64,000 nt of DNA from Curvularia clavata. Taxonomy: Eukaryota. Positions 19,801 through 54,720 of this stretch are shown here, in pieces. The DNA lies in assembly GCA_023920165.1 (NCBI GenBank), contig CP089275.1:3844001-3908000 (forward strand), given 5' to 3'. The position numbers and the translations under genes were made by a program. Each line of letters opens with the position of its first letter. The first letter of the stretch is position 1. The notes below the pieces were generated by a model, which made no database searches, was not told the origin of the DNA, and saw nothing but the letters and a program-made list of their open reading frames with translations.

Positions 19801-22103
19801 AGAGTTCGGTCTGCGAGATGAGAAAGTTGAGCTTCCGCTTCTGTCGGTTGGCTTCACGGTCAGCTTCAGCCTTCTTTGCGTTCTCCAGCTCTTGACGCTC
19901 AGCATTCTTTCGTGACTCGCGCTCGTCTCGCTCGTTCCTCTTCCAGAACGCGAGCATCTCGCGCATGCCTCGCTTCGCCCTAGCCTGTGTATCCTTCTGG
20001 TTCTTGTTGGTGCGCATCTGCCATCGGCGTGCTTCTTTGGCGGCCAGTTGGGCAGTCTTCCGAAGGTTGGACTGTTTAGTGGATAGAGAGTTCTCTTTGA
20101 TGCGGACGACCTTGGGAACATCTTTCCGGGCCAGGTCTTTGACGATCTGCTGGTAAAGGTTGCGGTACGCAGACGAGTCGTAGGAAGTGAGCACGACGGG
20201 GCCAATGTCTTCGGTGTAGCTGCGGCCTCGTATTGAGTCAAGCCGGGCTTCCTCACGGGGAGCGATCATGGGGAGATCATCGCCACGGTCGAGAGCAGCT
20301 TGGCCGGCAGCTGCGGCATCCTTCTCCGCCTGCTTCTGTTCCTTGCTCTTCTTAAGACGGCCAGTGCCACGGTTGCCCTTGCGCTTCCCGCCAGGAACGT
20401 CGTCGGAAGCCTGGAAAGAACTCATTGTGCCGCCCTCCATGTTGGGGCCATGTGGAGTGACTTCGCGGATGTCCTTGCTAGGAGCATTACCCTGCAGAAG
20501 CTGGGTGGTGGTCTTTGCCTTACGCTCAGCTTTTTGCGCTGCGAGCAAGTGTCGTTCTTTCTCCTCCTCGTTCTCAGCCTGGCCGGCCTTTGCAAGAGCC
20601 TCCGCACGCTTGGCCTCCTCGTTCTGGATAGTCTTTTCCCGTCTCCGCTTGCGTTGCATGTCCTTCTTGCGCTCCTTCTCTTCGGCAATCTCCTGGCTCT
20701 GCACTTGCTGCCACGCATCACCCTCATGCTCGACATTGTATGAGTGCTTGGCGTAGTCGCGGTGCGCAGCTGACACATCCTGGAAGCGGATCAAGGTCGC
20801 TGTCCGCCTTCGCTTGCGCTTGCTGGCCTCTGTGGCGGAGACTTCTAGTATGCGCTTTTGGCTGCGCTGCTTGTATTCTGCCTCTTCACGCGAGTTGACT
20901 GGAAAGTCCATGTCACCCATTTGCGTGGTTTCGATGTGTGCCAGTTGAGCCTCAACCTCGGCCTCGTCTTGTGGATGGATTTCGCGGGTCGCAGCCTGTA
21001 GTGAGGGCTGCACGCTGCCGCCCAGAGGGATGGCATCGTAGGTTGTCCGTGGCGTGTAGCCATTCTCATGGAGAGGCACGTCAGCTGGTGCTGGGGATGC
21101 CATGGCCTCTTGCTTGACGAAGTGCTGGTTGGGCAGAGGTTTCGATGGTCGATATGGATCGGCGTTGACGGGAGCAACCGACTGAGGTTTTGGCGGGGGT
21201 TCGTTATCCGCACCAGAGGACATTATACTGGAGAGTGACATGGGATCGGCACGCGTTGGCGGCGGCGCCTGGTGGTGGGTGAGCAACAATGGCACATGGG
21301 AGCGGGAGACGCGAAAGTCACTTACCTCATCCTTGAAAGACGGCCGTCTATCATAGCTCGGGGGAGGCGGAGGCGGCGGCTGGACAGCACCACCGGGCCG
21401 GTTCATGGATTGATAGACGGATGGGGAGACGGGAGAATGGGACATGGTCTCCATGGCACCGGTGTGCTGGTGTTGAGAATGGGGGCGCTGCAAGGGCGAG
21501 TGATGGGATGGATATGAAGTGGTGATGGGCGAGTGATAGACCTTTTCGTAGGGGCTGTGGGCGGGTCGGGTGTCGTGGTATGCGTGAGGATCCCGAGCCT
21601 GGAGCGTGGACAGGGTTAGCGGTGCCTCTCCTGAAGACGGGGGGAGAGCAAGGTGAAGGGGGCAAGCGGGCGACGACGGGGAGGATGGTGAGGATGAATT
21701 GACGCGATGAAGGGTTGATGGTACGCACCTGTGTGGGATACTGGGGGTCGTAACGCGCCGGGTCTCTGGCTACGCGGCGGTCGCCATTGTCGGAGGTCGG
21801 GTCGTAATATCTGGACGTGTCGCGAGAATAGAGGGCCGTGCTGATGGGCGGCAGCTCGGTCGAGGTGGGCGATGGGGGCGGGCGGTGGTGTTGATGGGGC
21901 TGCAGCGGCAGAGGTGCAGGCGTGTTTGGGGAGTGGTGGTGTTGGTGTTGTTGGTGGTATGGCTGGCCTGCTCGTGTGGGCGACGAGTGGTAAGCTGATG
22001 GCGTAGGTGCGCCTTGGTGCCCTGGCGGCATCCTGTCTCCTCGCGACCGCTCCTCGCCGCCGCCATCATCAACCGACGGGCGCAGGACGGGATCGCGAAA
22101 CAT
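16814..22103 (-). CDS. INO80: INO80 chromatin-remodelling ATPase
   Basis: DBINO region ([19 protein letters not shown]), [16 protein letters not shown] box and split SNF2 helicase ([11 protein letters not shown]). Introns 21599-21728, 21269-21325 and 16972-17025. Start codon uncertain. Confidence 0.96.
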
Positions 22104-23287
22104 GGGACTGGCGCGTTCCGACTCTCTCAATGCGTCTGGGGCGGCTGCTCCATGGACGGGCAGCAGGCAGGGCGGGCGGAGAGGCGCGCTGGAATGGGGG
22201 CGACGAGCTGGCTGGAGATGCGCCTGGTGCTGCGGGAGCCGGTTGCGATGGTCGGCCTGCGACTGGCGATGGATGGGAGCGAGGGGCCAGCAGACGAGGG
22301 CGATGGAGATGGGATGCGAGTTGGACTGGGGGGCGGGTGTGGAGCAGAGCTGTCGAGATCACACACACATAGGCACGAAGGGTTGGCAAGTCAGCTTCTG
22401 TCTAGTGCGGCTGCGGCAGCGCTGTCCCTGGGGCAGCTCCGGGCGTGATGCAGACCCGCGATGAGGTTTGATGGAGCGACCACGACTCGCTGCACACGTC
22501 GCCCTGCCACAGAGGCACCGCTGGCGACGACCAGAGCCCGTCTTGGGCGGTCAGAGATGCTCGTGGCGATGCTGGTCGCCCGTCTTGGGGTCGGCGAGGG
22601 CGCGCCCTCTGCTCCCTCTGCATTCGAGCCCGCTGGTCTCGTCGAGGCATACACACGCCCCCAGATGGTGCATCGACCAATAATTTGCATGCACGCGAGC
22701 GGCGCCGTGCAGCCTGCGGGCCGTCTTGCTCTGCAATTGCCTGCGCCTGTTTTTTTGCCTACATGCTGTCCATGTGCTGATGCCATGGCGATGCTACGGC
22801 CCGGCGCCGTATCCGCCTCGCTCGCTGGCAGACGACGACGTCCTCCTCGACTCTGCCCTCCGCGTGCCAGGTTGAGGCATTGCCAACTTCGGCAAATCAG
22901 CCACCGACGCTTCTCTGCACCACCCTCGCCGCAGACACTGCCCTGGTTCGCTCTCTCCATGGCCTTTTGCCTAGATTCCACTGTCGCGTCCTTACCATTG
23001 CCATCTCGCCATGGCAACTCGACGACGCGCGACAAAGCGCCATGAGCCCAGACGCACTCTAAACGGGGCAGGAGCATTGGGGCCTGCACTCCCTCATTGG
23101 GCGAACCCTGCCAGCGATGGTGACGGAAGGCGCGACCCATGTCGGTGGGTCGAAGCGTAGCCCGGCGTCGCGTGGCCCAAGCGTAGATCACGCTAAAACG
23201 CTCGGCGCATCCATTCTCGAACTTTTTCCAAGGGCGCGTTCAGTTTGTGAGCAGCAACAAAAGTCCCATCAACTTTGTCGCATCGCC

Positions 23288-24436
23288 ATGGCTTCCGTAT
23301 ACAAGACCCTGTCCGGCGCCGAGAAGGAGGAGAAGGATGTCGGCGTCAAGAGAAACAAGCAGCGTGTTCTTATTCTGGTATGCCATTTGCCTGCGCAAAG
23401 AAAAAAAATGATAGAGAAAATCCTTGCTAACAGACGACAGAGTTCAAGAGGTGTCACATTCCGCCACCGGCATTTACTGCAGGATCTCTACTCTTTGATG
23501 TGAGTAGTAGTCAAATCATCCTGCAAAGACACTTTGTTAATATTCCACAGGCCCCATAGCCGAAAAGAGGCCAAACTCGACACCAAGACGAAGCTCTACC
23601 AGCTTAACGAACTAGCAGGTACGAAATCCCGTTAATTTCAAGCTGTCTGATGATGAGAGGGCTCAAAAAATGTGCCTTTCATTCATCCGCAGAGTCTTGA
23701 GTTGAAACTGACCCAGCCAGAACTCTACAACTGCAACAATGTCCTCTTCTTCGAGGCCCGCAAAGGCAAGGATCTCTACTGCTGGATGTCCAAGCCTCCC
23801 AACGGCCCCACGGTTAAGATGCATCTCCAGAACTTGCACACCATGGAAGAGCTCAACTTCATTGGCAACTGCCTCAAGGGATCCCGGCCAATTCTTTCTT
23901 TTGATGCCGCCTTTGACAAGCAGGCCCATCTGCGTGTCATCAAGGAGCTCTTTACCCAAATTTTCGGTGTTCCCAAGACGAGCAGAAAAGTAAAGCCGTT
24001 TGTTGATCACGTCATGGGTTTCACCGTCGCAGACGGCAAGATCTGGGTCCGCGTCTTCCAGATTAGCGAGAGCGAGCCAGGCAAGAAGAAGGCTGCAGAC
24101 GGCGAAGAAATGGATGTTGATGAGCCTGCACCCAAGAAGAAGCACCACAAGGGAGAGCTCGACGTCAGCCTCGTCGAAATCGGCCCTCGCTTCGTCCTTA
24201 CGCCTATTGTTATCCAGGAGTCCAGTTTCGGAGGTCCCATCATCTACGAGAACAAGGAGTTCGTGTCGCCCAACCAGATCCGTTCCGACCTGCGAAAGTC
24301 CAAGGCCGGCAGGTTCAACAAGCGAACCGAGGCGCAGAGGGACACTCTGCTCAAGCACCAGGAGCTGGGTCTGACGTCGCATGGCGGGCGCAAGAAGGAG
24401 AAAGATCCACTCAGCGACAATGTGCTGTTTGCATAA
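23288..24436 (+). CDS. BRX1: Brix-domain ribosome biogenesis protein Brx1
   Basis: MASVYK..KQRVLILSSRGVTFRHRHL, GPTVKMHLQNLHTMEEL, GNCLKGSRPILSFD, LVEIGPRFVL. Introns 23378-23440, 23500-23550 and 23619-23720. Confidence 0.95.
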
Positions 24437-24654: not shown

Positions 24655-25473
24655 TCATTCCTGTGCAGTCATGCTCTTTTCTAATTCTTCCTTGTACTCA
24701 TCGTTGACACCACTAATCACAGCCTTGCGGACTCCACGCAGTGCTCTGAACGGGTTCAACACCAACTGTGCCTGGGCAATGTTGTTCTCATCTTGCACTC
24801 GGTGCACCCTACCGCTTGGGAACTTGACCCGACTAATGGCTCCATCAATCAAGTGCACCTGCAGTCGGTGCAATTGCGGCACTGCAACCAGCAAGTCCAC
24901 AAGCTCGCGAACTCTCCTATGTATACCAGCCGACAAGCCTCGCCCGCCATAGTTATACTTGATCATGCCCGTATAGTCGTCGACCGACTCGACATTCACA
25001 ACGTAGTTCTTGATACGCAGGAGGTTCCTTTGTGAGAAGTGATCTAGAAATTGATATGTTTGGTTTGGGGTAAGGTTATTCGCAGTCCGCCAGCGATAGC
25101 GAAAATCAACTGCTTTGAAGGTCACATCGATCACAAACGTGTTGTCGCCATAGAGCATGTCTGCCGTCTCTTCGTGCACCTGTCGCGACACGGCGAGCAG
25201 CGTCGTGCTTCCCCGTCGCCATACAATGTCGTTGCCTGTCTCCCGGTCCGTCCGTGGCATCGTCCGCTGCATTCGCCAACCCCCGTCACCGTTTTTCTGC
25301 CGGACGAAGGTCAGATTGTATTCGGGCTTTGGGGGCGAGTCAATGGAGCGCTGGAAACGCACATCGAAGGTTGTGGTATGCGGTAGGACGAGGCTGTAGA
25401 TCAGACGACGGAGCTCGATTGGGAGGTTTAGCAGGGCTGATGGCTGATACGATGCGGCATTTGCGTGCCACAT
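24655..25473 (-). CDS. Fungal protein with an N-terminal F-box-like motif
   Basis: LLNLPIELRRLIYSLVL and LLAVSRQVHEETADMLYGDNTF, motifs common in filamentous-fungal F-box-like proteins. Start uncertain. Confidence 0.72.
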   Translation of the reverse strand: MWHANAASYQPSALLNLPIELRRLIYSLVLPHTTTFDVRFQRSIDSPPKPEYNLTFVRQKNGDGGWRMQRTMPRTDRETGNDIVWRRGSTTLLAVSRQVHEETADMLYGDNTFVIDVTFKAVDFRYRWRTANNLTPNQTYQFLDHFSQRNLLRIKNYVVNVESVDDYTGMIKYNYGGRGLSAGIHRRVRELVDLLVAVPQLHRLQVHLIDGAISRVKFPSGRVHRVQDENNIAQAQLVLNPFRALRGVRKAVISGVNDEYKEELEKSMTAQE

Positions 25474-26115
25474 TGTTTCTTCCACCCGTTTTAGACTCTA
25501 GATTTGTAAAGGTCAGGTAGCGATGTAGTTTGCGACTTTGCGGGCATGCACGCCTCGCAGTGGTTGACGCCATCGGTCCATCCTCCGCCTCCACACCGAT
25601 TGGTCCCCACAACCCAGATTGGCTCCACTTGGCGCTATCTACCAACTTACACAGCTGCACGGCGATGATGACTCCTGACTGCTTCTTCAACCATCAACAT
25701 GTCCATGGCCTCTGAACACGGCTTAGAGCCTGTGGTTGTCTGCACCATGTCTGTAAAAACTCTTGTTACATTTTCTACCTACAGCCCCAACGGAGGGGTC
25801 CAATCCATCTGAATTATCAGTTACGCGTCGGGGCGAAAGCGAAGTAGCTACGCGCCGATTGATCCAGGAATCACACAGCACGATTACAGCTGGACAGTCA
25901 AGACGGAGATTTTGACTTCTAGACCTGAATCTATTAAGACAGTCACGAATCCGTACCACAAAAGAAGCTAGATATATATACCAAAGTGACGATATAGGAG
26001 TGAGTAACACACACAACATTGAAGTCATGCAGTTGGTGGGATGTCATTTCAAGTGCTGACTTTTCAAGTTGCTGGAAATCAAGCACTATCGAATACCGCG
26101 CACTTTAAATCCAAG

Positions 26116-27183
26116 ATGTTATTTGAAGACCTCGCCACGGAGCTCGTGGTGCAGGTATTCTTATCCTGTGGCTCAGTCACCGACGTGACAGCCCTATCAT
26201 CCACCTGCAAGCGCTTCCGCAGCATCTTTTCTTCATCTCAGAAACTTTCCATCCTCGAGAGCGCAGCCGAAACGCAATTTGGACCACTCCACGATCTCAC
26301 CCAACTCCTCACCCACAACGCTAGTCAGCCAGTACACATCATTCGCTCAGTCCCCTTCTCATTCGCCTTGCTCAAACAAATCGTAAACTACGGCCGAGTC
26401 GCAGAAAAATGGTGCGAGATATACCCGTTCAAGAAGTGGAAACACAACTTCGAGAGCCGCCGCCTATTGACAGCCCACGAGCGGTATAATGTACGACGGG
26501 CAATCTACCGCATCTGGCTCTACTCGCGTGCCTTTCACAACCGCGACCATCCGCGCGAGCTCCGCGCTACGCGCCTTGTGCTCTTGAAGCGCGCTGCTCT
26601 CCTACACAACTACAGCACGTGGGAACTCGCCGAGATGGCCGACGTCCACAGCGTGATGCGCGAAGTCGTACAAAGCAACATCTGTCCTTCCAACGGCACC
26701 ATAGCCCGAAAATTCAAGAAGAGACACCCGGGAAACGAGCACCATCTTCTCTTCAACATCCACCTCAACTATCCGCCCACAGCACCCCAAGCTTTCAACC
26801 CTTTTGCCCCAAGCCCCCTCTCTGCCCACTTCAACAACACAAATACCTACACCTCTCGCTACGCTGCGTCAAAGTACTCCCTGCACCCTTCACACGAGGT
26901 AGGCGCGGAGGGCTGGGGCGACGATATCCCCCACTACTACATTGTAGAAGACTATCTCAAGCTTGATCCCGCGCAGATACTGCATCTCAAGGAGAATGCG
27001 CCGCTCAAGGGCATGGTTGAGGCATATGTCAAGAGTTTGTGTCCCGATTACGATTGGTTCTCGAATAATGGCGAGACGTGGATCCAGACATTGGAGTTTG
27101 TGCTAGATGAGCGGGGGGAGGATGTGGGAGAGTTTATGGGCGCCATTGTGGATGGGGAGTTGGGGGTTGCGGTGGAGAGTTAG
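26116..27183 (+). CDS. F-box domain protein
   Basis: MLFEDLATELVVQVFLSC..VTALSSTCKRFRSIF is an F-box-like pattern. Intact ORF with C-ending codon bias. Confidence 0.75.
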   Translation: MLFEDLATELVVQVFLSCGSVTDVTALSSTCKRFRSIFSSSQKLSILESAAETQFGPLHDLTQLLTHNASQPVHIIRSVPFSFALLKQIVNYGRVAEKWCEIYPFKKWKHNFESRRLLTAHERYNVRRAIYRIWLYSRAFHNRDHPRELRATRLVLLKRAALLHNYSTWELAEMADVHSVMREVVQSNICPSNGTIARKFKKRHPGNEHHLLFNIHLNYPPTAPQAFNPFAPSPLSAHFNNTNTYTSRYAASKYSLHPSHEVGAEGWGDDIPHYYIVEDYLKLDPAQILHLKENAPLKGMVEAYVKSLCPDYDWFSNNGETWIQTLEFVLDERGEDVGEFMGAIVDGELGVAVES

Positions 27184-27568
27184 ATGGGGGTGAAGAGACG
27201 GAGTGTTGTGAACGGTTGCTGACGTTGATGTTTCTAGTAAAGGAATATTGTATAGAGTATCAATAAGAGCTTGACTGTCAGTGACTAATCATGTTATCAC
27301 AAGCGATTCCCTCTTCCTTTGGTCCGTGAACGGATCCTGTCTTTCCAATTCCCCTAATCTTCCATCTGCATTTTCAAAAGCCCACCGAGTCCCTCATCAT
27401 CTAAATCTCAATCAGAAACCCCTTCATTCCATTCAAGAACCCTGCAACTAGTCAAATAACCGAAAAGCGCTCACGAAGCTAGCGCCATATCCCCTTCATA
27501 TCCTTGTCGTTCCAAGTACTCTTCCTACTACTAGAGAGAGGAGGAGCCAGAGGCTCTATCTCCAACGC

Positions 27569-30500
27569 TTACGCATCAATAACCCACGTCTCGCCATCCA
27601 ACGTTCTATGCACCCTGCCTTTTTCCTCAAGGACTAAAAGGTGCGCAAGCAGTGTCTCAGTATCTGTGTTCAGCTCTACCGCCATATCGTTGATGTTCTG
27701 CCCAATGTAGGATGTCGGGCGCGAGCGGAGATCGTTTGTGAGGTGGGCAATGATTCTGATGTCGAGGTCGTCGAGGCTGTCTCCTCTTCCTTTCTTCTCA
27801 TTCTTGCCCAAGTTCGAGGAACTGCTGGAAAAAATGCCAGACCTGGGTGCAGAGGGTAAATCTTCTCGCTTGTCACTAACGTTTTGCCGGTTTCGGTCGT
27901 CCTTGGGATCCGAGTACACGTCTGGCATACGTCCTGCTGCTGTAGCTGCTGTGGCTCCTGCTGCTGCAACTCCTGCCGCCACTCCTGGTGCTGCCACCCT
28001 CGGTTTGGCCCTGCTTCCTGCTAACAATCTCCGAATACGGTCTCTTATTCCTCCTCCTGAGAATGGACCCGGGTCTCCCCCTTGTCGATCCGCTTCCCCT
28101 TCTTTGTTCTCCTCTGGGTTTTGGAACTTAGATACACTACGCAAACGCCTGGATTTGAAGAGTGAATTTTCACTGTCCGAGTCTTGAGAGATCCTGGGAA
28201 TGCTGGGCTCAATTGTGGGGAGTACACTTGCTCGGCTATCGAATACACCAGAAGAAGAGCCAGGGCCGAGTGCGGAGGTTGAGCTTTCTGGCTCATCTCT
28301 GACATTGTACCGATTTTGATTGTCCCTTAAATCAGTGTCCGAAACTGACCGCGCTACATCCACTGCTGAGGATGAAGCTATGTCTCCTCGTCGCACAGCC
28401 TCTTGTGTTTCCATGAACTGAAGGTCGCTCTCGCTTATGAATCGTGGCCTTGTTTCCCCATATTCACATGTTTTCTGTCTAGTGTATTAGTACTTATAGA
28501 AAATATTTATAGGTATGACGTCTGTGAGGGTAAAGGACTACTAACTTGTTTCCCCAAAGCCATGCAACGGCCGCAAGGATGCTGGAAGTCACAACGGAGA
28601 TATGCCTTCTTGCAGTTGATACATGCCAAGCCTTTTGTCTTTCTAGCTGGATTAGCTGGCTCAGCTCCTTGGTCACTGTTCGGAAAAGCAGTTTCGCGGC
28701 CTCCGCTGATGACCAGATCAGCCATGCCATTCTCAGCTGGGATCATTCGCAGGGTGCGGCCCTCCATGTCGCCGTTGAACTGCAAGCTGAGTGGGGCGTT
28801 GGCATCAATGCGGAGGCGAATCTCGTTGTTCTTGTTGGTAATGGCGGTGCGATTGCTTCGGCTCCGTTCGCTGCCAGAGGAGCTGGAGTCGGAAGGCAAA
28901 AAAATAGTTCGTGAATACCGGGCGGCGTTGTGAGTAGGGTCGTTCAGTGGCTCACGAGCACCACGTCGAGCACTGATGTACTCTCCAGCTTCGTTTTCGA
29001 TGCGCTTAGTCTTGCGCTCGAGCATGCGCTCCTTGCCTTTGCCATCGCCAGCGTCAGTGGGACGGCGGCGGCGGGCCTGAGATGGAGGAGGCACTGATGC
29101 ATCTGGAAGAAATTGCTCATCAAATTGCATTGCTTTGGAGTAGGTAGGGGTGCCAGGCATGCTGGAGGGAGATCGCCTGGACGGAGGACGGAAAGCGGGC
29201 TTGACAAGCTCACCAGCATTCTTTCGCAGTAGCGGCGGTTTTACCCGCAGCTCATCGTCCTCAATATCGCTGCCGTCCTCCTCTTTTTCATCCCCTTTTT
29301 CATTCTCTTTATCTTTGTCTCTATCCTTCTGTTCTTGAACAGCTTGCGTGATGGCTTGAGCCAAAGCCTGGCACATTGCATCTTCGTCACTTTGTCCACC
29401 GAACCGAATATGCACCGTAGCTTTATCTCCTGGCGGTGAATTATCTCTCTGCACCTCTGAAATTGTCAAATCATAGAAACCTGTTCCGTAGTACCATTTG
29501 GTGTCAGCCTTTATACCAAATGACATCAATGGGAGACTCTCGAGATGGTAGGAATCTCTGGAGAAGGTGAATGAGTCTCTGAATACTCTGATAATGCATA
29601 AGTCTTCACAAATGGGCTGCGGCGTTGTTTGATCGAATTCTGTGACGAAAACTCTGGCAGTTGCCGTAGCCAAGGGCTCTTCCTCTGACATTCTTTGAGA
29701 CGTTTGCTCTAGGAGACTGGATTGAGAACCGCTGGGGCCAGATGTCGGCTTGGATAGCAAGGTCTCTGCTCTCTTGAAAGACTGGCCCTCTAACCGGTTT
29801 GCAGGAGCTCCCTCGGGTGGTGGAAAATATACAGGCAAAAGTCTTCTGTAGATGGACTCATTGTTGGATGAGTAAACGGTGAAGACAATCTTCTCCAGAC
29901 CACCAGGCTCTTTGGATTGTAGAAACCGCCTGATTTCTTCCATGGCAAGTGCTGCACAATCGCGGGGCGGACCCATCCCAATACAGGGAATAGCAACTGA
30001 CTTGGCGTTCAAGTATGTAGCTTTCAACAGGATTTCGCGGTATATGTTGCGCAGTACGGTCTTGGTATCGCTTCGAAATACCCCGGGCGGGATGACATGC
30101 AAGATATGCTTGGCTGGTAAAAGGTACCCTGCAGTTGTTACCACATCACCCATCTTGCACTCACCAATCCTTTCGAGTTTTGATTGCAGTTCCGGACCAC
30201 CTTTCCTGAAGATGGTACGATCCAAAGTTCCCATACCGAGAAAGGACTTGTCGGTAACATTGACGATGACGTCGACCTCCAGCTTTGTAATGTCTTCTTT
30301 TATCAAGCAGACGGTATCATTGAAGCTTGCAGACGGGGGCGCCAGAGTAGATTGTGCTTCGATAGCCCCAAGCTGGTAAAACCGTGCTACAGACGGTATC
30401 TGATGTAGCTTAACTATATCTTGACGATGAGAAACAGGTGATACAGAATCTTTCAGGGATGTCTCATCATCCTGTGGATCGAATATGTCATTAGGCCTAG

Positions 30501-33500
30501 CAAGGGGAATACGCATAGGGCGGCTGCCGCAGTAGACACCTTGCATCTCCACCACAGCCTTCTGTTGGTCTTCCTTGCTGCCGAAGCGGACGAACCCATA
30601 ACCTGGCAGTTTGCTGCTGAGTGGGTCGAATATGATCTTTGCAGACTTAGTAGAGGAATACTTGTCCTTAAAAAGTTGGAAAAGGCTAGATTCGGTTACG
30701 ATAGGATCTAGGTTGTCGATGAAGAGGCTAGATCCCGGGTGATGCTGGTCACGGCTGTCTTGATTGTAAGCACTCATTGCAATGGAGTCATGGAAGAAAG
30801 TCGTGGATAGGACTTGCCTCTCGTCAGCGGGACCGCCGCTAGAAACCGGATCCAGTATAAATGGCTTGTCGCGAACACTTGGCCTATCTGCTTCGCGCAT
30901 GTAACCCTCTAGAGCTAGGGTCGCTTCGATCGTATCCGGGTCAAGCCTCTCTGAGGTCAAGGCCTGATTGAGACTGCCCATAAGAGTCCCACAATAAATC
31001 AGATATTGCCTGAGACTATAGCCGTGCGTCGCAAGCATGTCCTTGTCGGCCTCATTCCGTAATTCCTGATACGTTCTTGCAGTGTGTTCCTTTGCTATCT
31101 GGGCCATTTCTATGATGCGGCCGCATAGATCCAAGAGAACGGAGGATAGTAAGTCGAGGTTGTCCTGGTTTATTGTAAACCCTCCGGACCCATGCGATTT
31201 CTCATGCGCAGAGTCCAGTGCGGCATCGATAAGCCGGAGGATAGTAACATCTTCCTGAGCTACGGAAACATATTTAATGAGCCCACTCCCGAGTACTTTG
31301 ATTGCTTTCTGTACTTGAACCAATGCCTCCAAGATCCGAAAGCGTAGTAGGGCATGATTTGGAGACGACGTCGATAATCTTGCCTTGTCAATATCGCTGT
31401 GCGTCGGCGGAAAGAATACAGGGAAAAAGTCGGTATAAGCCTTTCGGTCTTCTGCTGCCATGGTACAAAAGACTATACGTTCCAGTCGGTTTTCTGAGCG
31501 TGCATCCAAGTAATCGCGGACTGCTTGTAGTACTGTGCGTGCAGCTTGGCGAGGGGGGAAAATGCCACCTCCGGTACCCAAGCAAGGAAATGCGATCGTT
31601 TTGACTCCAAGTTCAGCCGCCATATCCAACGCATTGCGGTAGCAATCTCCAAGAAGGTTGAATTTGATAAGACCATCTTCCCCAACAAACGTCGGTGCAG
31701 CCGCATGAATAACAAATGACGATGGGAGGGCATACCCACGAGTCCATGTGACGTTGCCTGGTTTGAGTCTGCCTCTGGACATCACTTCTTGTAAGAGAAA
31801 TGACCCCCCGGCTTTTATTATGGCATGATGTAATGTGCCCGGGGCTGGTGATTGTGTCAAGGTCAGAGGAGCATTGTTGACAATAGCATCTACCTTTAGT
31901 TTCGTCAAGTTATGGGAACAGAAAGAAATAGTACGGTTATAGACATCATTTGGCGCGTAACTCTGGTCGGTTTGTACCAGTTGCATCGAACGATACAGTG
32001 AGCTCAGTGTTGGGATATCCTTTACCTCAAAGGGTAGTGGTGTGTTCGAGATTTGGGCTAGCTCTGGATGGTATGAGCTGTCAGGGCTGTTCAGTCGCTC
32101 TGCTATTATTTCCAGTGTATTTCGACTCGTGTCGGGGAGGTGCTGTAGGTTCTCTGCGGAAAGTGCATCGCCACCGGGGCCAGCTACATCAACTGACTCG
32201 GTCTGGTCGGGCTGTAGGGTAGCTGGTAAACAATCTTTAGCTGACGTACTCTAAAACATGGTACTACTGTATCTTCATAAACTTACAATCCTGGTTCTCT
32301 GTTTGCTCATCCGCCATGCCTTCAGATACAGAACCCAGAAGAGATCTAGAGCTAGCACTACCAGGGCTTGCGATACCACTTGCTCCATCTGAATCATCTT
32401 CACTGCCATGAGGAAGAGCAAAGGTTGCGATTCGCTCCAGATGATTTGCAATATGGCTTTGCAAGTCATCTAGCTCTTCGGCATCTGCGGATGCATAGCA
32501 TATCGGGCATTTTTCTCGCATATCTACTGCGGTAGCCTCGCCAACTTTGGCAATAGTTTCCAGCTGGCTTTCCGGAAAGCTGTCGAGATGTCTTTGTCGA
32601 AGATGATTTTCCAAGCCAGACTGAGTACTGAATACAGCGTCTGGATGCTCTGGACATCTCCAAACCTTGCGGTGGCTTGCTTCATGCTCAGCCCATTCTC
32701 TGCGGCTGCGAAAGAGTAGGTGCGAGCTCTCACAGTCTTGGTATGTACAACAGTATGGCTGTAAGTCCTGTAGTAAATGTGTTCTCCAGGGTCTTCCTTT
32801 GCTGTATCTTGCGGGGCAAACAACCCAGCAGTATGGGCACTCGAAGTCTTTATCGCCGTTTGCCGTTTTGGGGGGTGGGGGAAGTTCAATACTTTTTCCA
32901 TGTACATCTCTCACCGTTACGGCATAACTTGTTACTGATTTGTTGTCTATTATATCGTCCAAGGGTTGGTGGAGCTGTGTTGCCTCTGTGCCTGAGAGCA
33001 GTGTTTTTCCAGTCTTCTGACTCGGCGCTTCTTTGAGAGTCGTGGCAACGGGCACTGTTGGATTTTTTCCCACACCATCATCATGAACCTGCGCTGCTCC
33101 ATCAACCGGAGCAGCGACCTTGACTTCCTGCACCTCATCTGCCACCTCCGCGGAGCTCAGCTTGTCACGATGTCGTTTCCAGTATTTAAAATGCCGTCGC
33201 CGAAGCGTCACCGCTGCACTCAACCTCTTGATCAAAAAATCATGCTCTTCCTGCACACTATCCCCTACATAGGGCTGACGCAGAAACGACACCAACTCCT
33301 TCACATGCTTGAGATCCTGCTCCGCATACACATCAAAGATATCGATGCCCGTCTCAGGATCTTTCTGCGTGTAAGACGATGCTTTGAGCGACCTTGAGCG
33401 GAGGCCCGGCGTCCTAATGCGCACGCTTAGCTTGTAGAGATTATCGATGATGTCGACGATCTCTCTGAAGCGCATACTCAACTCAGTTCTGGGTTCATCG

Positions 33501-33892
33501 CTGCTGTTGCTGCTGTTTTCGTCGTCCGAGTCTGCACTGAAGAAGCCATCGTCGTCGTCTTCAGTTGGCTCTGGTGGGGTTTGCTCTTCGTATGGAAGAC
33601 GAGCGCCAGATACCACTGCATGTGCTTCATTGACGTTGGTTTCAAGTTCTTGGAGCAGCTTTAGTGTGTTGGTGCTGGAGACTGGTGAATCTCGTAGCCG
33701 GTAGTCGAGTGAGCTGTGGCCTTTTTGGAGAGCACCTAGATTTCCGGCCCAGACGCGAAATCGTCCGATTTCGTCTTCGAGCGCTTCTTTTTCAATGGCA
33801 TGGGTCCACTTGCGATCACCGGTACTGAGCGCAGTGATTAAATTTTGAAATGCCCGCACATTCGAGGCCGTCGCGAGTCGTAGGGATGACAT
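27569..33892 (-). CDS. ~2062-aa mosaic protein: N-terminal helical domain, C2H2 fingers, macro, RRM, macro, PH-like?, Gac1-like segment, Zn2Cys6, RPA32C-like winged helix
   Basis: Introns 32223-32286 (GTAAGT..CCAG) and 28475-28545 (GTTAGT..CTAAT..ACAG) join ORFs 32264..33892, 28507..31986 and 27569..28414 in frame. Exons are 1606+3677+906 = 6189 nt. The second splice supplies the sixth Cys of the Zn2Cys6 motif. Confidence 0.8.
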
Positions 33893-34374
33893 GGCGAGCA
33901 GTTGGCATGTTGGGTATGTGCAAGCGGGGGAAGGAGGGGCCTAGGACTCAGACCGCGAGCGAAGGATGCTCTGCCGATACTTAGTGATTCATGCTTCTGA
34001 GAGTGTATTGTGAAGACTGATATCATGGTGATTTGTAACTTCAGCTGCGGATGCCTAGTCGGGTATAGATTTCGTGATGCTAGGGCTTTTGCAGTTTGGC
34101 GGGGGGGCTGAGCCTGAGCTGAGCCTTGTAGGCAGGCAGCTTTTCGTTCATTTATCTCAGCTACTCACCTCACAAACAGTCTGCAGACATATATGCAACT
34201 CCAATACTCTAGCACATTCAGAATTACTGACTGTGGCAACTAGAGGCGGCGGGCGTGTTTTCACGGGCACCTGCTTCGGGAGCCAGCGCAAGGCCCCCCA
34301 CTCGTTCCTTCCCCTCTGCGCGCCCATGACAAGCGCCACTGTCTCTCTTTGTATATTATGAAGACACACCAAAA

Positions 34375-36308
34375 ATGAGCGGCATAGAGATAGCTGGTCT
34401 TGTTCTTGGCTGTTTGCCGCTGATTATTCAAGGTGCGCATAGGTACAGCCATGGAAGATGCAACACCGACCTGACAGCAGCCTAGCGATCGAGAGCTACA
34501 ATGAAGGCCTTGACCCTATAAAGGGTTTCTTTGGAAGGGACAAGGAGCTGCCCGTATTTATCAGAAAATTAAGAGCCCAGTATGATCATTATGACCAGAC
34601 AATTCAGCTCCTCTTTGGATCCATTACGACAGACGCCGAGTTCGCGTTGATGATGAGCAACCCTGGATCGTCGCAGGACCTTTGGAAAAGCAAAGAGGCG
34701 GCACTTCAGGATAAGCTCCAGAATACGTACAAATCGTATCAGAGGACAATGATGGAGATTGAAAGAATAACTAAGAAGATTGCCAGCAGGCTAGATCTGG
34801 ACCGTGCAACCGAGGTAGGGACGGGATGTGGTTGGCCTGGTCGGGCTATGTTGACGTGAATCATAGGTTACCCGGGATGATCTTGAGGCACTCCTGATCG
34901 CAAACCCCAAAAAGGCCAACGACAAGTTTGAAATCAGGAAGCGCGTCCGATTTGGCATGAACAAGAAAACGATTAAAGCGCTCTTGGAAGAACTGGACGA
35001 GTGCAACAAAAGCCTCGAAAGATTTACTGAGAAGAGCGAAAAGATAGAGACATACCACCGAGCGACCAAGCCTTCGTATGCCTCACGGCTGCAGAAACTA
35101 CAGCGATATGCCAAGACACTACATGAGTCGCTGAGTGTATGCTGGTCATGTTCATGCAAGCTCTCACACCGAACAAGCCTCCAACTAGAGCCTCGAGAGC
35201 ACGTCTTTGCTACGAAAGGGCAGAAGCCAACGCCCATGCCGAAAACAAGCTTTAAGGTTGCTTTTTCGACTGCAGCGTCGGATATGGGCGGTGTATCGTG
35301 GCTCGTGCAGGCTGCAGAGATAAGCGTAGAAGAAGATGATGATGATGACTGTCTCGTTGGCATGAAATCTCTTAGCCCAAAGTAAGTGATTGATATGCAT
35401 GAGCTCCGTTTGGTGGCACAGACATATGCGTACGTGCTAGCGGTGAGTTTGATACTAACAGTGGCAGAATCACCAAAACCGTCAGCTTCGGTACCCTTCC
35501 TCCATATGCTGTGATGAATCCGATAGAGAAGCCTTTTGCTTCGCACCAAGAGGTGAAGGACTTGTGTGCATCGATTCGAGAACTACACAAGAATGCCCCA
35601 AGGATTGGCTTTTTGCTAGACAGTAAAAGCAAGTTGCGTGGCGCTTACTCGATTGATACATCGGAAACACAGGTTCCTAGCATGGAAATGGTATCCCTGG
35701 AGGATCTGCTGAAGCAGCCACCAATCATCAACGGCAGGCGCTCAAAACTGAGCATGAAGGACAGGTATAGTCTGGCTGTGACATTGGCATCTAGTGTCTT
35801 GTACTTGAACTCGACTCCATGGCTGGCTAATGAGTGGACCGCTCGCGATATCCTGTTCCATCAGACGCCGAACACTGCACAACCGATAAACATGCAGCAC
35901 CCATATCTAGCGCCGGCGGCTGTTGGGACAATGAATGGTGCACTGGGACAGTCGCCGCCAGACCACTTCAGAAACACTGTTCTGATTGCTCTTGCGGTGA
36001 CGCTCCTCGAACTCTACTTTGGAGTGACGGCTGAGAAGTATCAACAGCTGGAAGGCGGGGACGACATGGCTGAAATGTCAAAGCAACCGGGGCCGTGGAA
36101 GCTTTGGGCACTGGCACGTAGCTGGACGTTCAACGAGTCTGGAAACCTGTCTGCCGCGTTCCAGAATGCCATCCGGCATTGCATAACAGGGTCCAGCGAC
36201 CCTTGCGCGAGTTTACAAGACGCCGAGTGTCTCCAAGCTGCGGTTGAAAACATTGTTCTACCACTGCAGGAGGAGCTCGACCAGTTTCTGGGGAAGGCAA
36301 CAAAGTAA
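34375..36308 (+). CDS. HeLo/HELL-like N-terminal domain plus pseudokinase-like (DUF7580-type) C-terminal domain protein
   Basis: Starts MSGIEIAGLVLGCLPLIIQ. Introns 34433-34485, 34815-34866 and 35382-35467 join in frame. C-terminal motifs: RYSLAVTLASSVLYLNSTPWL..W..DILF, LIALAVTLLELYFG, FQNAIRHC, ENIVLPLQE. Confidence 0.78.
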
Positions 36309-38265
36309 ATGCAGCGGCGTCGCATAGGTACCGTACCGGTTCGGAACGATAGCCGCTTATTCAACGCACATCACCTCGTATTTGATCCACCCGCCCGCGA
36401 GTGGGATGCGGCTCTGGGGTAAAACGAGGTTCGCTAGTGCGGCAGCGCTTGAACGTCATGATTGAGGAGGGGGTTAGGATTATTGGTCAAAGTAGTTCAG
36501 CCGTGATGATGGCGACGCGAATAAGGTGCCATGGCAACAAGGGCATCTGATGGCAATGTGACAAGTTTGGTGGGATTAATTGGTGGGATAGGCCCACAGG
36601 ATGGCTTGCTTGCTTGTTAGCATGGTTGACTGGGCACGGCAGATACAAGCTCTCGTGCCTGCCACTATGGGTAGTACAGAGGCTTGGCTGGTCGCCTGCC
36701 TTGTGTGGGTTGAAGGCATATGGTTCGGAGGCGGGCGACAAGACGGGTTTGGTGGTGAGGGAGCAGGCACCTGGTGGGTGGGGCATAAGCATGTGGAGAC
36801 GATTGGTGCTGGGTGCGGAGCTGGTGGGGGGTCCGTTATCTATCTGACATTATCCACAAAGTCGACATGGTTGCTCACTGCACGATGCGCATGTCTGGCA
36901 AGCCCGGAGGATGACATGGCCGGCGGGTTTGGACGACGTCATGGTCCGTGGAGGAAAAAAGAGAATTGGGCTGGCCGCATATCGGACAAAGATTGCAGTT
37001 ATTAGCTGGGCCCCTATTGGAATTTTTCAGTGGGAACCAGAAATGTAGCGCACAGCCAGTGCTCGCCATGCATGATATGGGAGATGGATGGAGATGGGTG
37101 GGTGTTTCCAGAGTGATTAGCCTGCTTATGCTGGGCAATCATGTGCAACATGGCGGCAGGCGTACAAAACCCAGGCTTGTAAGACGGGGGTTTGGGCGTG
37201 GCAGTGAGGGCCAGTCATTGGTGCCGAGGGAGCGGGATAGTTTGGACTTTGCAGCAGAGTTGGGTTGTTGCCATGGCGCAGTGAAAATGTCCGAAGAGCA
37301 GCGCGAGTGGGCATCGAGTGTGGGTGGCAGATGGCGCGTCTTGCTGTCGACTGTCTACACCGCCTGGAGCAGCAACCAGAGCAGACGCAGAAGCAGAAGC
37401 AGAGACGGGCAAGGTGGGACAAGGAGCTAGACGATTAGAGTAGCGAGTGGCTTCGGCAAAGGCTCTCGTTGGCGCGCGCGCGACAGGCGGCCGACATTGC
37501 TGAAACAAGGCCTGCGGTTGGACGAAGGACGCGGAGAAGGGAGGCAAATGGCCACGCTGAGGGCGGCGAGCAGCGACGTGATTGCGCACTTTTCTCCGAG
37601 GGGGCGTGGCCGCGGCGAGACTTGGTGCACTATTAATGGAAAGCAAGCACAAGACGTCGTCGGCCCAATTTCCAACGTCGGTCGGCGGCTTGGTTGCAGC
37701 AGAGACGAAGGGACATGGAAAGAAGATAGCCCTGCCGTGGTAGTATGCAGCGGGTAGAGAGGCACGCCAACCACGGCCACAGACACACCACCACTACCCA
37801 CGCACAACACCGCGTCAACGACACGGCCCCGCCACCACCACAACAAATAATACATGTACATGTACACACGCCTTTGCCCTCATCGACGCACCCTCAGGCT
37901 CCCCACGCCCCCTTTGTCGCCCTCCGCCTTGACGCTGTTGCGGCTAGTGGGTTTGAGGCGGCGGCCAGAATTGCGCACTCAACGCTCGCCAGTCTATCCA
38001 GGGCCACCCCGGTCGGGCCAGGCTTGGCGCATCGGCACCCCTTAACGTCACCTCTGGATCCGTTTTCTCGACTCCCAATTCAAGCTCCTGCCAACCCTTA
38101 CCCTGTTGCTCTCTTCTCACACGACACTCGTTCACCCTCGGGACGCCCGCTCGACAGCCCGCCAGCGCAGAGCGCACCACCACGCTCCTTTGCTGCCTCG
38201 CTCTCGCCCGCCCTCTTGCCCACACCCTCTCCACATCACTTCGCACACGTACCTATACACCCACC

Positions 38266-39931
38266 ATGGCGCAGCAGTACGCCCGCCCCTCCCCGCCGCC
38301 CGCTCCTGCGGCTCCTCCCGCGCGCACATGGCTAACTCGTCTCCAGAATCACGTCGTCCTTGAAGGACTTCTGGCACACAATGACTTCGTATGACCGACA
38401 TGCCTCGCACGACTCTCCCTATCGGACCGGCCGTCACATCCCCATCCCACAGAGCCGCCACGCCGCCCTCACCTCCATCGCCACCAGCGGCGCAGAGTCC
38501 CGCACCGACCTCAACTCGCCCTACCAGCACGACGAGCTGGCCACCAGCAATGGCTTCATCGGCTCTCCCAAGGGCCCAATGTCCCCCAGCTCCCCCTACT
38601 CGCCCGGCATGCGTGGCTCCCTCAGTCGCCAAGCCACACTCGACTCGGATGCCTTCGACAAGGCTGCCAATGGCCAGATCCCGATGCAGGACTTCAACGA
38701 GGGCCTGCCTCCCCCTCCCCCAGTTACCCACTCATGGAAGCGCATTGATCGCTGGGTCGAGGACAACTACCAAGAGCTGTTTGACAACTTGTGCGAGGGC
38801 TGCACATCCAACGATGTCAACGAACTAGAGCACGAGCTGGATGCCACGCTCCCCATGGATGTCCGCGAGTCGCTGCAGGTCCACGATGGTCAAGAGCGTG
38901 GCGGTCTCCCCACCGGTGTCCTCTTCGGCCTCATGTTGCTCGACTGCGAGGAAATCGTCATGGAGTGGAAGAACTGGCGCAAGGTCGCCGAGGAGTACCT
39001 GACCACAAAGGTCGACTATTCATCCCCGCAGATTCCAGTCAAGGCCTTCGCCGGCTCCTCTACCACGCCTCCAGTTGCCCAAGTGCAGAGCACCGGCAAT
39101 CCGCTGTGGCGACAAGACCTGCTCGCCCGCCAGGACTCGCAACCGCCAAACGCCGTACAAAAGGCCTACTCCCACCCGGCCTGGATTCCTCTTGCTCGCG
39201 ACTGGGGGGGTAACTACCTGGCCGTCGATCTTGCACCCGGTCCGAATGGCACATGGGGACAGATCATCATCTACGGCCGTGACTACGATTGCAAATACGT
39301 CGTCGCACGCTCCTGGGGCGCGCTTCTTGCCATGGTTGCTGACGACTTTGCTTCCAAGGACGTGCACATGGACGAAGAAACTGGCGAGCTGAAGCTCTTG
39401 ATCTTCAAGCGCCAGAACGTCGAGCCGCCTTACCTAGAGGTCCTCCGCTGGCGATGCGACCAGAAGCACGGTCGCCGACCTCCCAAGAGACGCCCAGTCA
39501 GCGGTCTGCGCGTCAATCCAAACGCCCCGGGAATGGTTGTTCCTAGTAGCACTGCGAGCAGCCCTTACCACAGCCCGGTGATTGCACCAGAAGACCGCGG
39601 CCGCAGTCCTCACAGGCTGTCAAAACCGCCAAAAGGCGTCAGCCCACGTGGTAAGCTCTCGAGCCCCTTGGCACGTGTCGCTGAGGAAAACCCACAACCG
39701 GTCCGTGTAAACACAAACCTCGATTCCAAGGCTGCTGCCCCAACCGAAAACCTCATCTCCATGGACACCCCGAGACCAAGCGACGAGCTCTCTCAACCAC
39801 GCAACAGCTTAGGTAGCGACAAGGAGAACAAGGAGAGCAAAGAGAGCAAGGACACAAAGAGGACTTCTTCATCGCTGAAGAGCCCTACTGCTGCCGCTGA
39901 GCCAGAAGGCCTAAAGACTGTCGAGATATAG
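38266..39931 (+). CDS. SMI1: Smi1/Knr4 glucan synthesis regulatory protein
   Basis: SMI1_KNR4 motifs LPMDVRESLQVHDGQE, HPAWIPLARDWGGN, VDLAPGPNGTWGQII. An 11-nt first exon (ATGGCGCAGCA) is followed by intron 38277-38346. Confidence 0.93.
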
Positions 39932-40167
39932 CCATCTCGCAGCAATTGCTTCTCTTCAAACCATACTCACCGTTGACGATCTACTATTAGAAGGAACCCG
40001 CTGGATACCTGGCAGTCGAAATAAACATGATAGGAGTGCAGGCGTAGGATGGAGTACAAAATCATCACAACATTGAGTTTGTGGTGGTGTTTGCTTGGCA
40101 ACATTGACAGCATTTTCTCCTTCTCCCAAGGCAAATGGGGCGTTTTTTTCAACAATGCAAATCTACT

Positions 40168-53861: not shown

Positions 53862-54559
53862 GGTGCGCTGCAACACGATCCTCTTGTGCAATAATGGTGT
53901 TTGGGAGTGGGAACGTCAGACGCGCTGGGCCCGAGGATGGTTGGGCGGGGGAGAGATGCAACGCAAACAGGGAGGAAAGGGTCGTCGAGGACCTGCCAGG
54001 ATCGAAAACGAAAGAGTGTCAGGTTATGTTTAAAAGGAGTAGGATAATCAAACGCGCGGTGGTGCCGTCGATAATAAAAACGTGAGGAACCTGCCTCAGA
54101 TAGCAGTCTCTGTCTTGACCACGAAGGTACGGCTTTGGGAGGGGGATGCGAAACGCAAATCTGAGGGGGCAGCGGCAGCTTTAGGTGTCGGAGGGCGAGT
54201 GAAACAGGAGCCTAGTCGTCTCACATTGATCTATTTCCGCACGCCAGCCAGCGGCATGGCCTGTGCGCATAGCGCGGCCAATTGGGGCTCCGAGGGCCCC
54301 GCCAGCGCCCCGGTCGCCCGCAGGGATCATGGCGACTCGTGGGACGGCCGTCGTGCATGCGTTGGCCACGGCGCCCGAGGGCTGGCTAACGAGCTTGGCC
54401 TGGCCCGCCGCTCGTGTGCTGTGCGTTGTGGGTGGGCGGCCGGGCCTGTGTGTAGTAGTCGTGGTCGTGGTGAAGGGTGCGATCGAGTCTGTCCTGCCTG
54501 CCTGCCCCGGTAGGAGCGAGTGCAAACGGGCGGCCATGCATCTGGAAGGTGCGTCTGGT

Positions 54560-54720
54560 CTTGCTTGCTTGCTTGCTTGCTGCTGCCACTTGCGTGGGTC
54601 GCTCTTCCCTTGTCCGCAGCGCCCCGACTGCCCTCGCTCCTGCCCGGCCTGCCTCGCTCCTGCCTGCCCTGCCTGCTTGCTTGCTTGCGCCCGCTCGCTC
54701 CTTCCTGCTGCTGCTACTAC
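54560..54720. repeat. (GCTT)n/(GCCT)n tetranucleotide microsatellite cluster upstream of STE12
   Basis: ttgcttgcttgcttgcttgc and gcctgcttgcttgcttgc read directly. Confidence 0.7.

Follow-up and report, generated by a model that had tools for sequence, protein, structure and literature searches.

A window of 64,000 nt from Curvularia clavata (the whole stretch of DNA analysed, to whose positions all coordinates refer) contains two divergent genes, a partner gene on the plus strand (gene A) and a large gene on the minus strand (gene B), which we consider, with a probability of roughly 0.55, to represent a two-gene module that is widespread in filamentous ascomycetes and apparently undescribed, and in which B would be a sensor or regulator and A a membrane-targeting executor. 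An initial annotation of the sequence had described a divergent pair set among housekeeping genes, one gene carrying a string of foreign-looking domains and the other beginning with a hydrophobic helix and ending in a kinase-like region, and had proposed a sensor-executor pair. The divergent arrangement is confirmed by the sequence and by spliced contigs, with start codons at 33892 (minus) and 34375 (plus) that lie 482 bp apart. The foreign-looking domains of the minus gene proved to be two Macro domains of the ADP-ribose-binding type, an RRM, a fragment copied from another gene and a Zn2Cys6 cluster, and the neighbouring genes are indeed of housekeeping type (INO80, Brix, SMI1/KNR4 and MnmG/MTO1).

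Conservation of the head-to-head pairing

Within the Pleosporales, both genes bear consecutive locus tags in nine of ten species (both tags taken from one annotation), the exception being Didymella heteroderae in which the tags are 31 apart. In Alternaria dauci (P0086 and P0214) the Macro gene and KNR4 have the consecutive tags 008641 and 008642, and an intervening tag for the DUF7580 gene (gene A) is missing; this gene is either unannotated or lost in the species. The SMI1/KNR4 gene used as a control is, however, equally adjacent, so that order-level synteny alone proves nothing, and locus-tag adjacency in the Pleosporales was discounted as evidence of coupling. For this reason metagenome contigs were scanned with the N-terminal module of gene B, giving 79 loci at 25-71% identity, and their six-frame open reading frames (ORFs) were searched with a hidden Markov model (HMM) of the DUF7580 family. 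A DUF7580 gene was found directly upstream and on the opposite strand in 54 of 57 testable loci (those with 1 kb or more of sequence ahead of the estimated module start), with a median gap of about 400 bp. The pairing is present at all levels of module identity (14/16 loci at 20-30%, 19/19 at 30-40%, 5/6 at 40-50%, 7/7 at 50-60% and 9/9 at 60-75%) and, after de-replication at 90% nucleotide identity, in 41 of 43 clusters. Among the misses, L038 and L039 are the other side of L043, that is, a second and shorter module gene behind the same DUF7580 gene.

The HMM was specific for the upstream zones, matching 59 loci within their 175 kb versus three ORF pieces in the other 590 kb, one of which belongs to the same partner gene and another to a fusion. 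At loci with more than 3 kb upstream, 37 of 40 partners are full length, including the HeLo-like part described below. The conserved linkage that the initial annotation had anticipated is thus near-universal and recurs in dozens of distant fungi, making the pairing a trait of the family that extends beyond local synteny. Two variants of the arrangement were seen. The overlapping region of L043, L038, L039 and L078 is a three-gene cluster with a shorter module-like gene tail-on behind the DUF7580 gene, and the head-to-head module gene of L078 ends in a fused DUF7580-like pseudokinase domain. L045 has a second, weak kinase-like match (4601-5980, minus; DUF7580 profile 394-542) about 2 kb past its regular partner.

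Domain architecture and the predicted complex

The last exon of gene A matches the Pfam family DUF7580 (PF24476; 6.9e-22, 78.9 bits against a gathering cut-off of 27), which was also found on all 52 aligned relatives. Eighty database proteins match the partner, nearly all of about 580 aa and approximately one per Pleosporales species, and their identity drops smoothly from 77% in Bipolaris to about 43% in the Botryosphaeriales; other classes contribute a few distant members. The protein begins with a hydrophobic first helix (MSGIEIAGLVLGCLPLII) of which M1, S2, G3, E5, G8, L11 and P15 are kept in at least 90% of the partner family. A structure model of the Bipolaris orthologue P0001, built with 52 relatives (predicted local distance difference test score, pLDDT, 78.9), has helices at residues 3-27 and 37-64 and remains helical on to residue 221, after which a mixed alpha/beta domain follows. 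Among the Foldseek matches listed for this model there are protein kinases only (E about 1e-3), and in VIA residues 210-578 aligned with kinases and pseudokinases of the TKL type at Z 7.4-8.6 (BIK1 8.6, the IRAK3 pseudokinase 8.3, RIPK1 8.1) and residues 1-192 with helical proteins (Sw-5b SD Z 10.2, Rx CC Z 8.6); the 50 VIA rows listed for this model include neither MLKL nor HET-s. The hydrophobic first helix and kinase-like end read from the sequence in the initial annotation were recovered by the model, Foldseek and VIA as a bundle of helices with a kinase fold behind it.

As none of the columns shared by 90% or more of the partner family alignment is a beta3 Lys, HRD or DFG, with D428 alone retained in the loop region, the DUF7580 domain is presumed to be a pseudokinase, a call that rests on conserved columns rather than on a residue-level structural alignment. 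A profile search of Protein Data Bank (PDB) sequences with the DUF7580 family returned nothing at E up to 10. For the N-terminal part, weak matches to the Pfam HeLo family (PF14479) occur in 16 of the 52 members, with scores of 13-14 bits (cut-off 23.2) and a best E of 0.014, and the four matches inspected are colinear, with protein residues 97-195 on profile positions 93-190 of 205. The protein-language search Atlas ranked a HeLo cluster second (0.94, 176 shared features), eight of its 30 matches being HeLo. The predicted architecture of the partner would be MLKL-like, that is, a helical bundle and then a kinase fold without conserved catalytic motifs.

The large protein was found to begin with a four-helix bundle of its own, absent from the initial annotation, which is the predicted docking surface. 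A model of its residues 1-535 with 42 relatives (pLDDT 70) comprises a helical domain (1-253), a disordered linker and a confidently folded zinc-finger cluster (340-495). Among the best VIA rows for the bundle are the coiled-coil (CC) domain of Rx (Z 11.2; 106 of 107 residues aligned, root mean square deviation 3.0) and Sw-5b SD (Z 10.5), together with MLKL (Z 8.4, chain residues 2-117), MLA13 CC (8.3), AtMLKL3 (8.3) and NRG1.1 CC-R (8.0). Z scores in this range are often seen with helical bundles, and a Pfam search to E 1 detected no HeLo, HELL, SesA or Goodbye domain on the bundle in 23 sequences (the N-terminal piece from the window and 22 relatives), so that the resemblance to CC, MLKL and CC-R domains is best taken as a lead, not as membership. 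Atlas placed the bundle with unnamed ascomycete clusters only (0.89-0.90). Alignment of the module family with the partner family by hhalign gave no shared segment (probability 0.1), indicating that the bundles of the two proteins are not detectably related. Family-invariant residues of the bundle fall within the motif RFxxWAGNLGA..SLDYRLR (G43, W48, N51, G53, D63, R65, L66 and R67), and the Cys and His columns of the C2H2 cluster are likewise invariant in the family alignment. PF26082 (zf-C2H2_AcuF) is precomputed on the orthologues P0081-P0083 (78-80% identical) and on most other listed orthologues, together with Macro.

A complex was modelled between full-length Bipolaris P0001 and residues 1-260 of the large protein of the window, and scored 0.64 (runs 0.65, 0.64 and 0.64) versus 0.00 for the best of three controls. 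In calibration, 51 of 78 solved complexes and two of 108 mismatched pairs attained this mark, as did, for eukaryotes, 39 of 65 solved pairs and two of 126 unrelated pairs. The runs have at least 70% of contacts in common, with a partner pLDDT of at least 72. On the bundle side the interface comprises residues 36-51 (the RFRVWAGN motif), 71-82, 101-107 and 134-160, and on the partner side helix 2 of the HeLo-like part (21-57), 157-165, 396-398, the SAAF segment (525-533) and the C-terminal E..FLG (570-576). It is more conserved than the rest of the protein in both families (0.80 versus 0.66, p = 2e-4; 0.73 versus 0.59, p = 1e-3). The prediction is unlikely to reproduce a known structure, since the partner family has no sequence-similar solved complex. 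The model supports binding, in which the bundle of B would clasp the pseudokinase C-lobe of A together with helix 2 of its HeLo-like bundle.

Gene structure, cargo and genomic setting

Contigs from four public runs (X1, X3, X9 and X20) were aligned to window positions 26500-37500. Those of X1, X3 and X20 skip introns and behave as RNA from close relatives (about 1-3% divergent); the label RNA for the four runs is a guess for which the intron skipping argues, and X9 covers the region in part, its uncovered bins being left uninterpreted. All three partner introns (34433-34485, 34815-34866 and 35382-35467; 53, 52 and 86 nt) are GT..AG and are absent from the X1, X3 and X20 contigs, while in X9 only the second and third are seen to be skipped. 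For the large gene, a single 6.6-kb contig covers 34036-27231 in X1 and another covers the same in X3. A 64-nt intron (32223-32286) is skipped in the contigs and carries a stop at 32264, so that its removal joins a 542-aa C2H2 ORF in frame to a 1159-aa Macro ORF. The second intron (30755-30817, minus; 63 nt) is of the GC..AG type with donor GCAAGT, is in frame and stop-free, and is skipped by X1, X3 and X20; the public protein model keeps it as coding. The third (28475-28545; 71 nt, GTTAGT..CAG) is read from the sequence in agreement with the public model P0084, and its removal completes the six-cysteine Zn2Cys6 motif. The minus-gene contig of X1 extends 5' to 34036 and an adapter-like loose end in X20 marks the end of a plus-strand contig at 34188, weak evidence from contig ends that places the 5' ends of the two genes about 150 bp apart.

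The large protein and its public counterpart from Curvularia clavata, P0084 (2021 aa, annotated as 'MACRO domain containing protein'), are 99.9% identical over residues 495-1720. P0084 is mis-spliced, with about 110 residues of the C2H2 cluster (window 32408-32907, minus) in the wrong frame and consequently no PF26082. No protein identical to the DUF7580 gene of the window occurs among database proteins of at least 490 aa, and this gene may be unannotated or modelled short in the public C. clavata genome.

The foreign-looking domains of gene B (Table 1) were assigned as follows. Macro (PF01661) matches in two stretches at 1.4e-40 (138.3 bits versus a cut-off of 22), and the nearest solved relatives of the RRM are Pab1 (1.5e-24) and Nam8 (1.8e-18). 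Two insertions set the Curvularia gene apart from the Bipolaris orthologue P0082 (1542 aa). The first lies between the two Macro domains and holds the RRM; it is bridged by P0082 residues 1004-1012 (window 30862-30459). The other, of about 1.4 kb and preceding the winged helix, holds the Zn2Cys6 cluster (for which P0084 gives Zn_clus at 9.6e-5) and the copied 145-residue segment. This segment has 115 matches, the best being residues 587-734 of P0321 (792 aa; 65% identical), encoded at a different locus in Pyrenophora teres, and no Pfam domain was found in its source family. All four runs also contain other, deeper contigs whose similarity of 90% or more is confined to 28688-29122, or to 28547-28626, and which are flanked by unrelated sequence at both ends, as would be expected after recent partial copying of other genes. 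Transcripts of the orthologous gene in the relatives have 296 unalignable letters in place of 449 nt of the window, and the contigs of the four runs leave the window's own cargo junctions (28388-29122) unconfirmed. A hypervariable tract follows the Zn2Cys6 exon, in which a 59-nt stretch (28330-28388) is doubled in the relatives and 157 nt (28388-28546) are replaced. Divergence from close relatives is 3-12% in the cargo half versus 0.7% over 32287-34036 (the N-terminal part of gene B and its 5' flank), and is also 0.7% from a close relative over 35468-37500 (the last exon of the partner and DNA beyond). Among other orthologues, precomputed Pfam matches add PH_24, PF26118, HSF, PAH, Myb and TPR, and the winged-helix residues of the Bipolaris orthologues match RPA_C or HTH_69 weakly; the many listed winged-helix families probably reflect one C-terminal domain.

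Across the family, 67 plus-strand ORFs that follow the module in 38 metagenome loci were searched with Pfam, which recognised nothing in 12 of these loci. The remaining cargo (Table 1) shows the same spread as database proteins with the module (kinase, TPR, SesA, SAM) and, judged by its domain matches, is the combinatorial nonself-recognition repertoire of fungal NOD-like receptor (NLR) and HET genes. Variation of the C-terminal cargo between species and between families, which the initial annotation had proposed to check, is seen in the Pfam matches of both the orthologues and the 38 loci. The same annotation had suggested that the pair could be NLR-independent, which is correct for the locus in the window, neither gene having a NACHT or NB-ARC Pfam match, but not for the family, as L026 and L030 are true NLRs.

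Beyond the 3' side of the large gene, window 24655-27183 encodes a DUF7730/2EXR protein (minus) and an F-box-like protein (plus), both fungal-specific. GC content is 0.57-0.61 in window 20001-24000, 36001-40000 and 52001-56000 and about 0.50 elsewhere.

Table 1. Features of the Curvularia clavata locus (window positions) and cargo found behind the N-terminal module at metagenome loci
Feature	Location	Strand	Basis or remark
Large gene (gene B), 2041 aa	27569..33892; exons 33892-32287, 32222-30818, 30754-28546, 28474-27569	-	spliced coding sequence open, end 27569
Four-helix bundle, residues 1-165	33398..33892	-	carries RFRVWAGNLGA..SLDYRLR; predicted docking domain
C2H2-type zinc-finger cluster, residues 340-495 (zf-C2H2_AcuF, PF26082)	32408..32875	-	orthologue annotation
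First Macro domain (best Pfam stretch)	31534..31833	-	PF01661
RRM	30514..30726	-	RRM_1 1.9e-13; inside insertion relative to Bipolaris orthologue
Second Macro domain region	29317..30459	-	second Pfam stretch; aligns to Bipolaris P0082 residues 1012-1406
Copied cargo segment, 145 residues	28688..29122	-	matches C-terminal part of unrelated ~800-aa gene family
Zn2Cys6 binuclear cluster	28460..28626	-	Zn_clus 6.9e-5; split by 71-nt intron 28475-28545
C-terminal winged-helix-like domain	27578..27790	-	common to orthologues; aligns to P0082 residues 1448-1521
Divergent promoter region	33893..34374	.	482 bp; contig ends
Partner gene (gene A), 580 aa, 4 exons	34375-34432, 34486-34814, 34867-35381, 35468-36308	+	spliced frame open
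HeLo-like part, residues 1-200	34375..35079 (introns included)	+	hydrophobic N-terminal helix, then helical bundle
DUF7580 kinase-like fold, residues ~200-580	35080..36305 (intron included)	+	PF24476, structure matches
Macro cargo	7 loci		some with PH_24, HSF or MarR-like winged helix
CBM_21 cargo	metagenome loci		Pfam
HET+NB-ARC+TPR_10/12 cargo	L026		NB-ARC 3e-12
HET+NACHT+WD40 cargo	L030		NACHT 1.2e-13; module, HET and NACHT in one 1529-aa ORF
WD40 cargo	L028, L065
Ankyrin cargo	4 loci		one with SH3
Pkinase+HET cargo	L047
SesA+ULD_2 cargo	L052
ULD_2 cargo	L034
TPR_10 cargo	L046
DUF7580-like domain fused behind module	L078
Zn_ribbon_19 match	L063

Competing readings and known systems

In the reading that we prefer, B would be the sensing or regulating subunit and A the membrane-targeting executor, held in check or recruited through docking of the B bundle, an arrangement that would correspond, with protein docking as the link, to RIPK3-MLKL or to the amyloid-coupled NLR/HeLo pairs of fungi. 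By analogy with both of these, control of the executor by the sensor subunit appears the most likely mechanism. The trigger of the Curvularia lineage may be read by its Macro and nucleic-acid-binding domains, for example as an ADP-ribose-type signal. On a wider scale, diverse sensors (NLRs, HET/repeat proteins and a non-NLR Macro giant) would share a four-helix 'dock' and the C2H2 cluster and bind a dedicated MLKL-like pseudokinase, and the Macro lineage, fixed across Dothideomycetes, would respond with membrane permeabilisation to ADP-ribose signals or ones derived from NAD, or to attacks on the RNA- and DNA-binding domains that it has captured. That the whole of this, including the coupling proposed for the Macro lineage, constitutes a second, amyloid-independent route from sensor to necroptosis-type executor in filamentous fungi is a proposal we make tentatively and with some doubt.

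A number of observations count against a sensor-executor pair. Membership of the partner N-terminus in the HeLo family is weak but colinear and lies below the Pfam threshold. The bundle matches of both proteins are weak (Z 8-11) and can be a common helical arrangement. The complex is a single-sequence prediction mixing a Bipolaris partner with a Curvularia bundle, and the cargo table is crude, its ORF chains being simple and possibly running into the next gene. The pairing was counted from the module side only; L065, with no partner within 9.9 kb, is the sole true miss. Pairwise distances of partner and module are highly correlated (r = 0.96 for 16 loci, r = 0.89 for 27 loci; none of 2000 permutations reached the observed value), a correlation which shared phylogeny alone can explain, the metagenome loci carrying no taxonomy. 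Both genes, seen in RNA-like contigs, are probably expressed without challenge, KNR4 tags are consecutive with the pair in Alternaria panax, A. infectoria and Bipolaris maydis, and there is one orthologue per species across the Pleosporales with smoothly decaying identity, which is atypical for fungal allorecognition genes.

The synteny of KNR4, as good as that of the pair itself within the Pleosporales, would fit two mere neighbours in a syntenic block that share a promoter and have no physical or functional coupling. We regard this as very improbable given head-to-head pairing in 54 of 57 loci down to 25% identity, the clean specificity control of the HMM, the fused form at L078 and a complex score well above its controls with the predicted interface on conserved motifs. 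The orthologue counts bear on a different alternative, an allorecognition (het-like) or selfish killer/guard locus with its specificity in the variable C-terminal cargo of gene B. The exchange of 449 nt for 296 unalignable letters between the window and its close relatives, the rearranged 157-nt stretch with its 59-nt duplication, the 3-12% divergence of the cargo half versus 0.7% in the N-terminal part and the HET domains of relatives are all what such a locus might display. However, an orthologue was found in every Pleosporales species matched, with no presence/absence variation or expansion in this between-species comparison, and divergence is low both at the docking end and in the last exon of the partner and adjoining DNA. 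Because of its single-copy, order-wide conservation and the 0.7% divergence over 35468-37500, an allorecognition role for this lineage looks unlikely, and we give the allorecognition or killer alternative little credence.

Single-copy conservation, expression and a housekeeping block make a domesticated, non-lethal regulatory role in the Macro lineage a serious rival. The two proteins would then form a conserved housekeeping or regulatory complex, for instance in ADP-ribose, RNA or chromatin metabolism, with bundle and dead kinase as scaffolds and with no cell-death or immune output in this lineage. In its favour the pair is single-copy and conserved across the order, shows low divergence from a close relative, sits within a housekeeping syntenic block and is expressed as judged by the intron-skipping contigs of both genes, and the biology of nucleic acids and ADP-ribose is where Macro, RRM, Zn2Cys6 and winged-helix domains typically occur. 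Such a role would have to accommodate paralogous pairs with HET, NACHT, NB-ARC, WD40, ankyrin and SesA cargo, a partner whose HeLo-like hydrophobic N-terminus is retained in 38 of 40 long-flank loci, and cargo that is remodelled between close relatives. In addition, zf-C2H2_AcuF (PF26082) is, in a report on the Neurospora crassa pangenome, among the most copy-number-overdispersed families together with HET and ankyrin (PMC13412767). On balance we judge a housekeeping complex to be rather unlikely, and prefer the sensor-executor pair. The interpretation in the initial annotation is supported in part. Linkage, folds (helical bundle and kinase-like domain, with colinear if weak HeLo signals), complex model and cargo variation give the sensor-executor pair good computational support, and none of the three grounds for refutation open to computation was borne out, whereas the allorecognition component looks unlikely for this lineage.

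If correct, the sensor-executor reading would extend to fungi the logic of MLKL, in which a regulator binds a pseudokinase to control a killing bundle, would define a function for two unexplained Pfam families (DUF7580 and zf-C2H2_AcuF), and would implicate Macro domains that sense ADP-ribose as an input across a whole class of plant-associated fungi. What is known of regulated cell death in fungi comes mainly from two kinds of pair, amyloid-coupled NLR/HeLo and gasdermin/protease. The finding offers a concrete and testable coupling, namely a conserved docking bundle on diverse sensors, including textbook NLRs, with named interface residues.

We found no description of the pairing, the docking domain or a Macro-type sensor in the searchable literature (supplements lay outside the search), nor any combination of a fungal macro domain with HeLo. 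The name DUF7580 is absent from it, PF26082 alone of the terms PF24476, PF26082 and acuF-like occurs, in a single paper, and acuF/aculin gave only unrelated matches. The accessible part of Wojciechowski 2022 contains no mention of C2H2 or pseudokinase. PF26082 is common to the gene B orthologues, and C2H2 zinc fingers have been noted in NLRs of the Sordariales, but the N-terminal bundle and the paired DUF7580 gene are not described in reports on these proteins.

Plant paired NLRs with integrated domains (RGA4/RGA5 and RRS1/RPS4) are head-to-head, and one partner accumulates foreign domains. The Curvularia locus is similar in being head-to-head and in that gene B has gained an RRM, part of another gene and a Zn2Cys6 cluster, and the predicted docking bundle structurally resembles CC domains such as that of Rx. 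Unlike in the plant pairs, neither protein has an NB-ARC or LRR domain and the putative executor is MLKL-like, so that the likeness drawn in the initial annotation does not hold in the strict sense, despite the gene order and the copied fragments, and would be a functional one only.

MLKL is a four-helix bundle joined to a pseudokinase and is the executor of necroptosis. Gene A has the same order as animal MLKL and the plant MLKLs, a helical bundle with a membrane-type first helix and then a kinase fold lacking conserved catalytic motifs. In contrast to MLKL, it has no detectable sequence similarity to solved structures, the neighbouring gene encodes its predicted regulator, a non-kinase docking bundle in place of a RIPK3-type kinase, and any killing activity would be putative. 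The HeLo-kinase architecture is itself already known in outline, some fungal HELL domains being joined to kinase or pseudokinase domains in a manner 'reminiscent of MLKL' according to a review (PMC12881547).

Like NWD2/HET-S, FNT1/HELLF and PNT1/HELLP, the locus has adjacent genes for a variable sensor and a HeLo-family (here HeLo-like) protein, and some relatives of gene B are true NLRs (NB-ARC with TPR in L026, NACHT with WD40 in L030). Unlike those amyloid-coupled pairs, its two proteins have no common motif detectable by hhalign, the coupling is predicted to be a folded bundle on a pseudokinase, and many of the candidate sensors, including that of the window, are built without a NOD domain.

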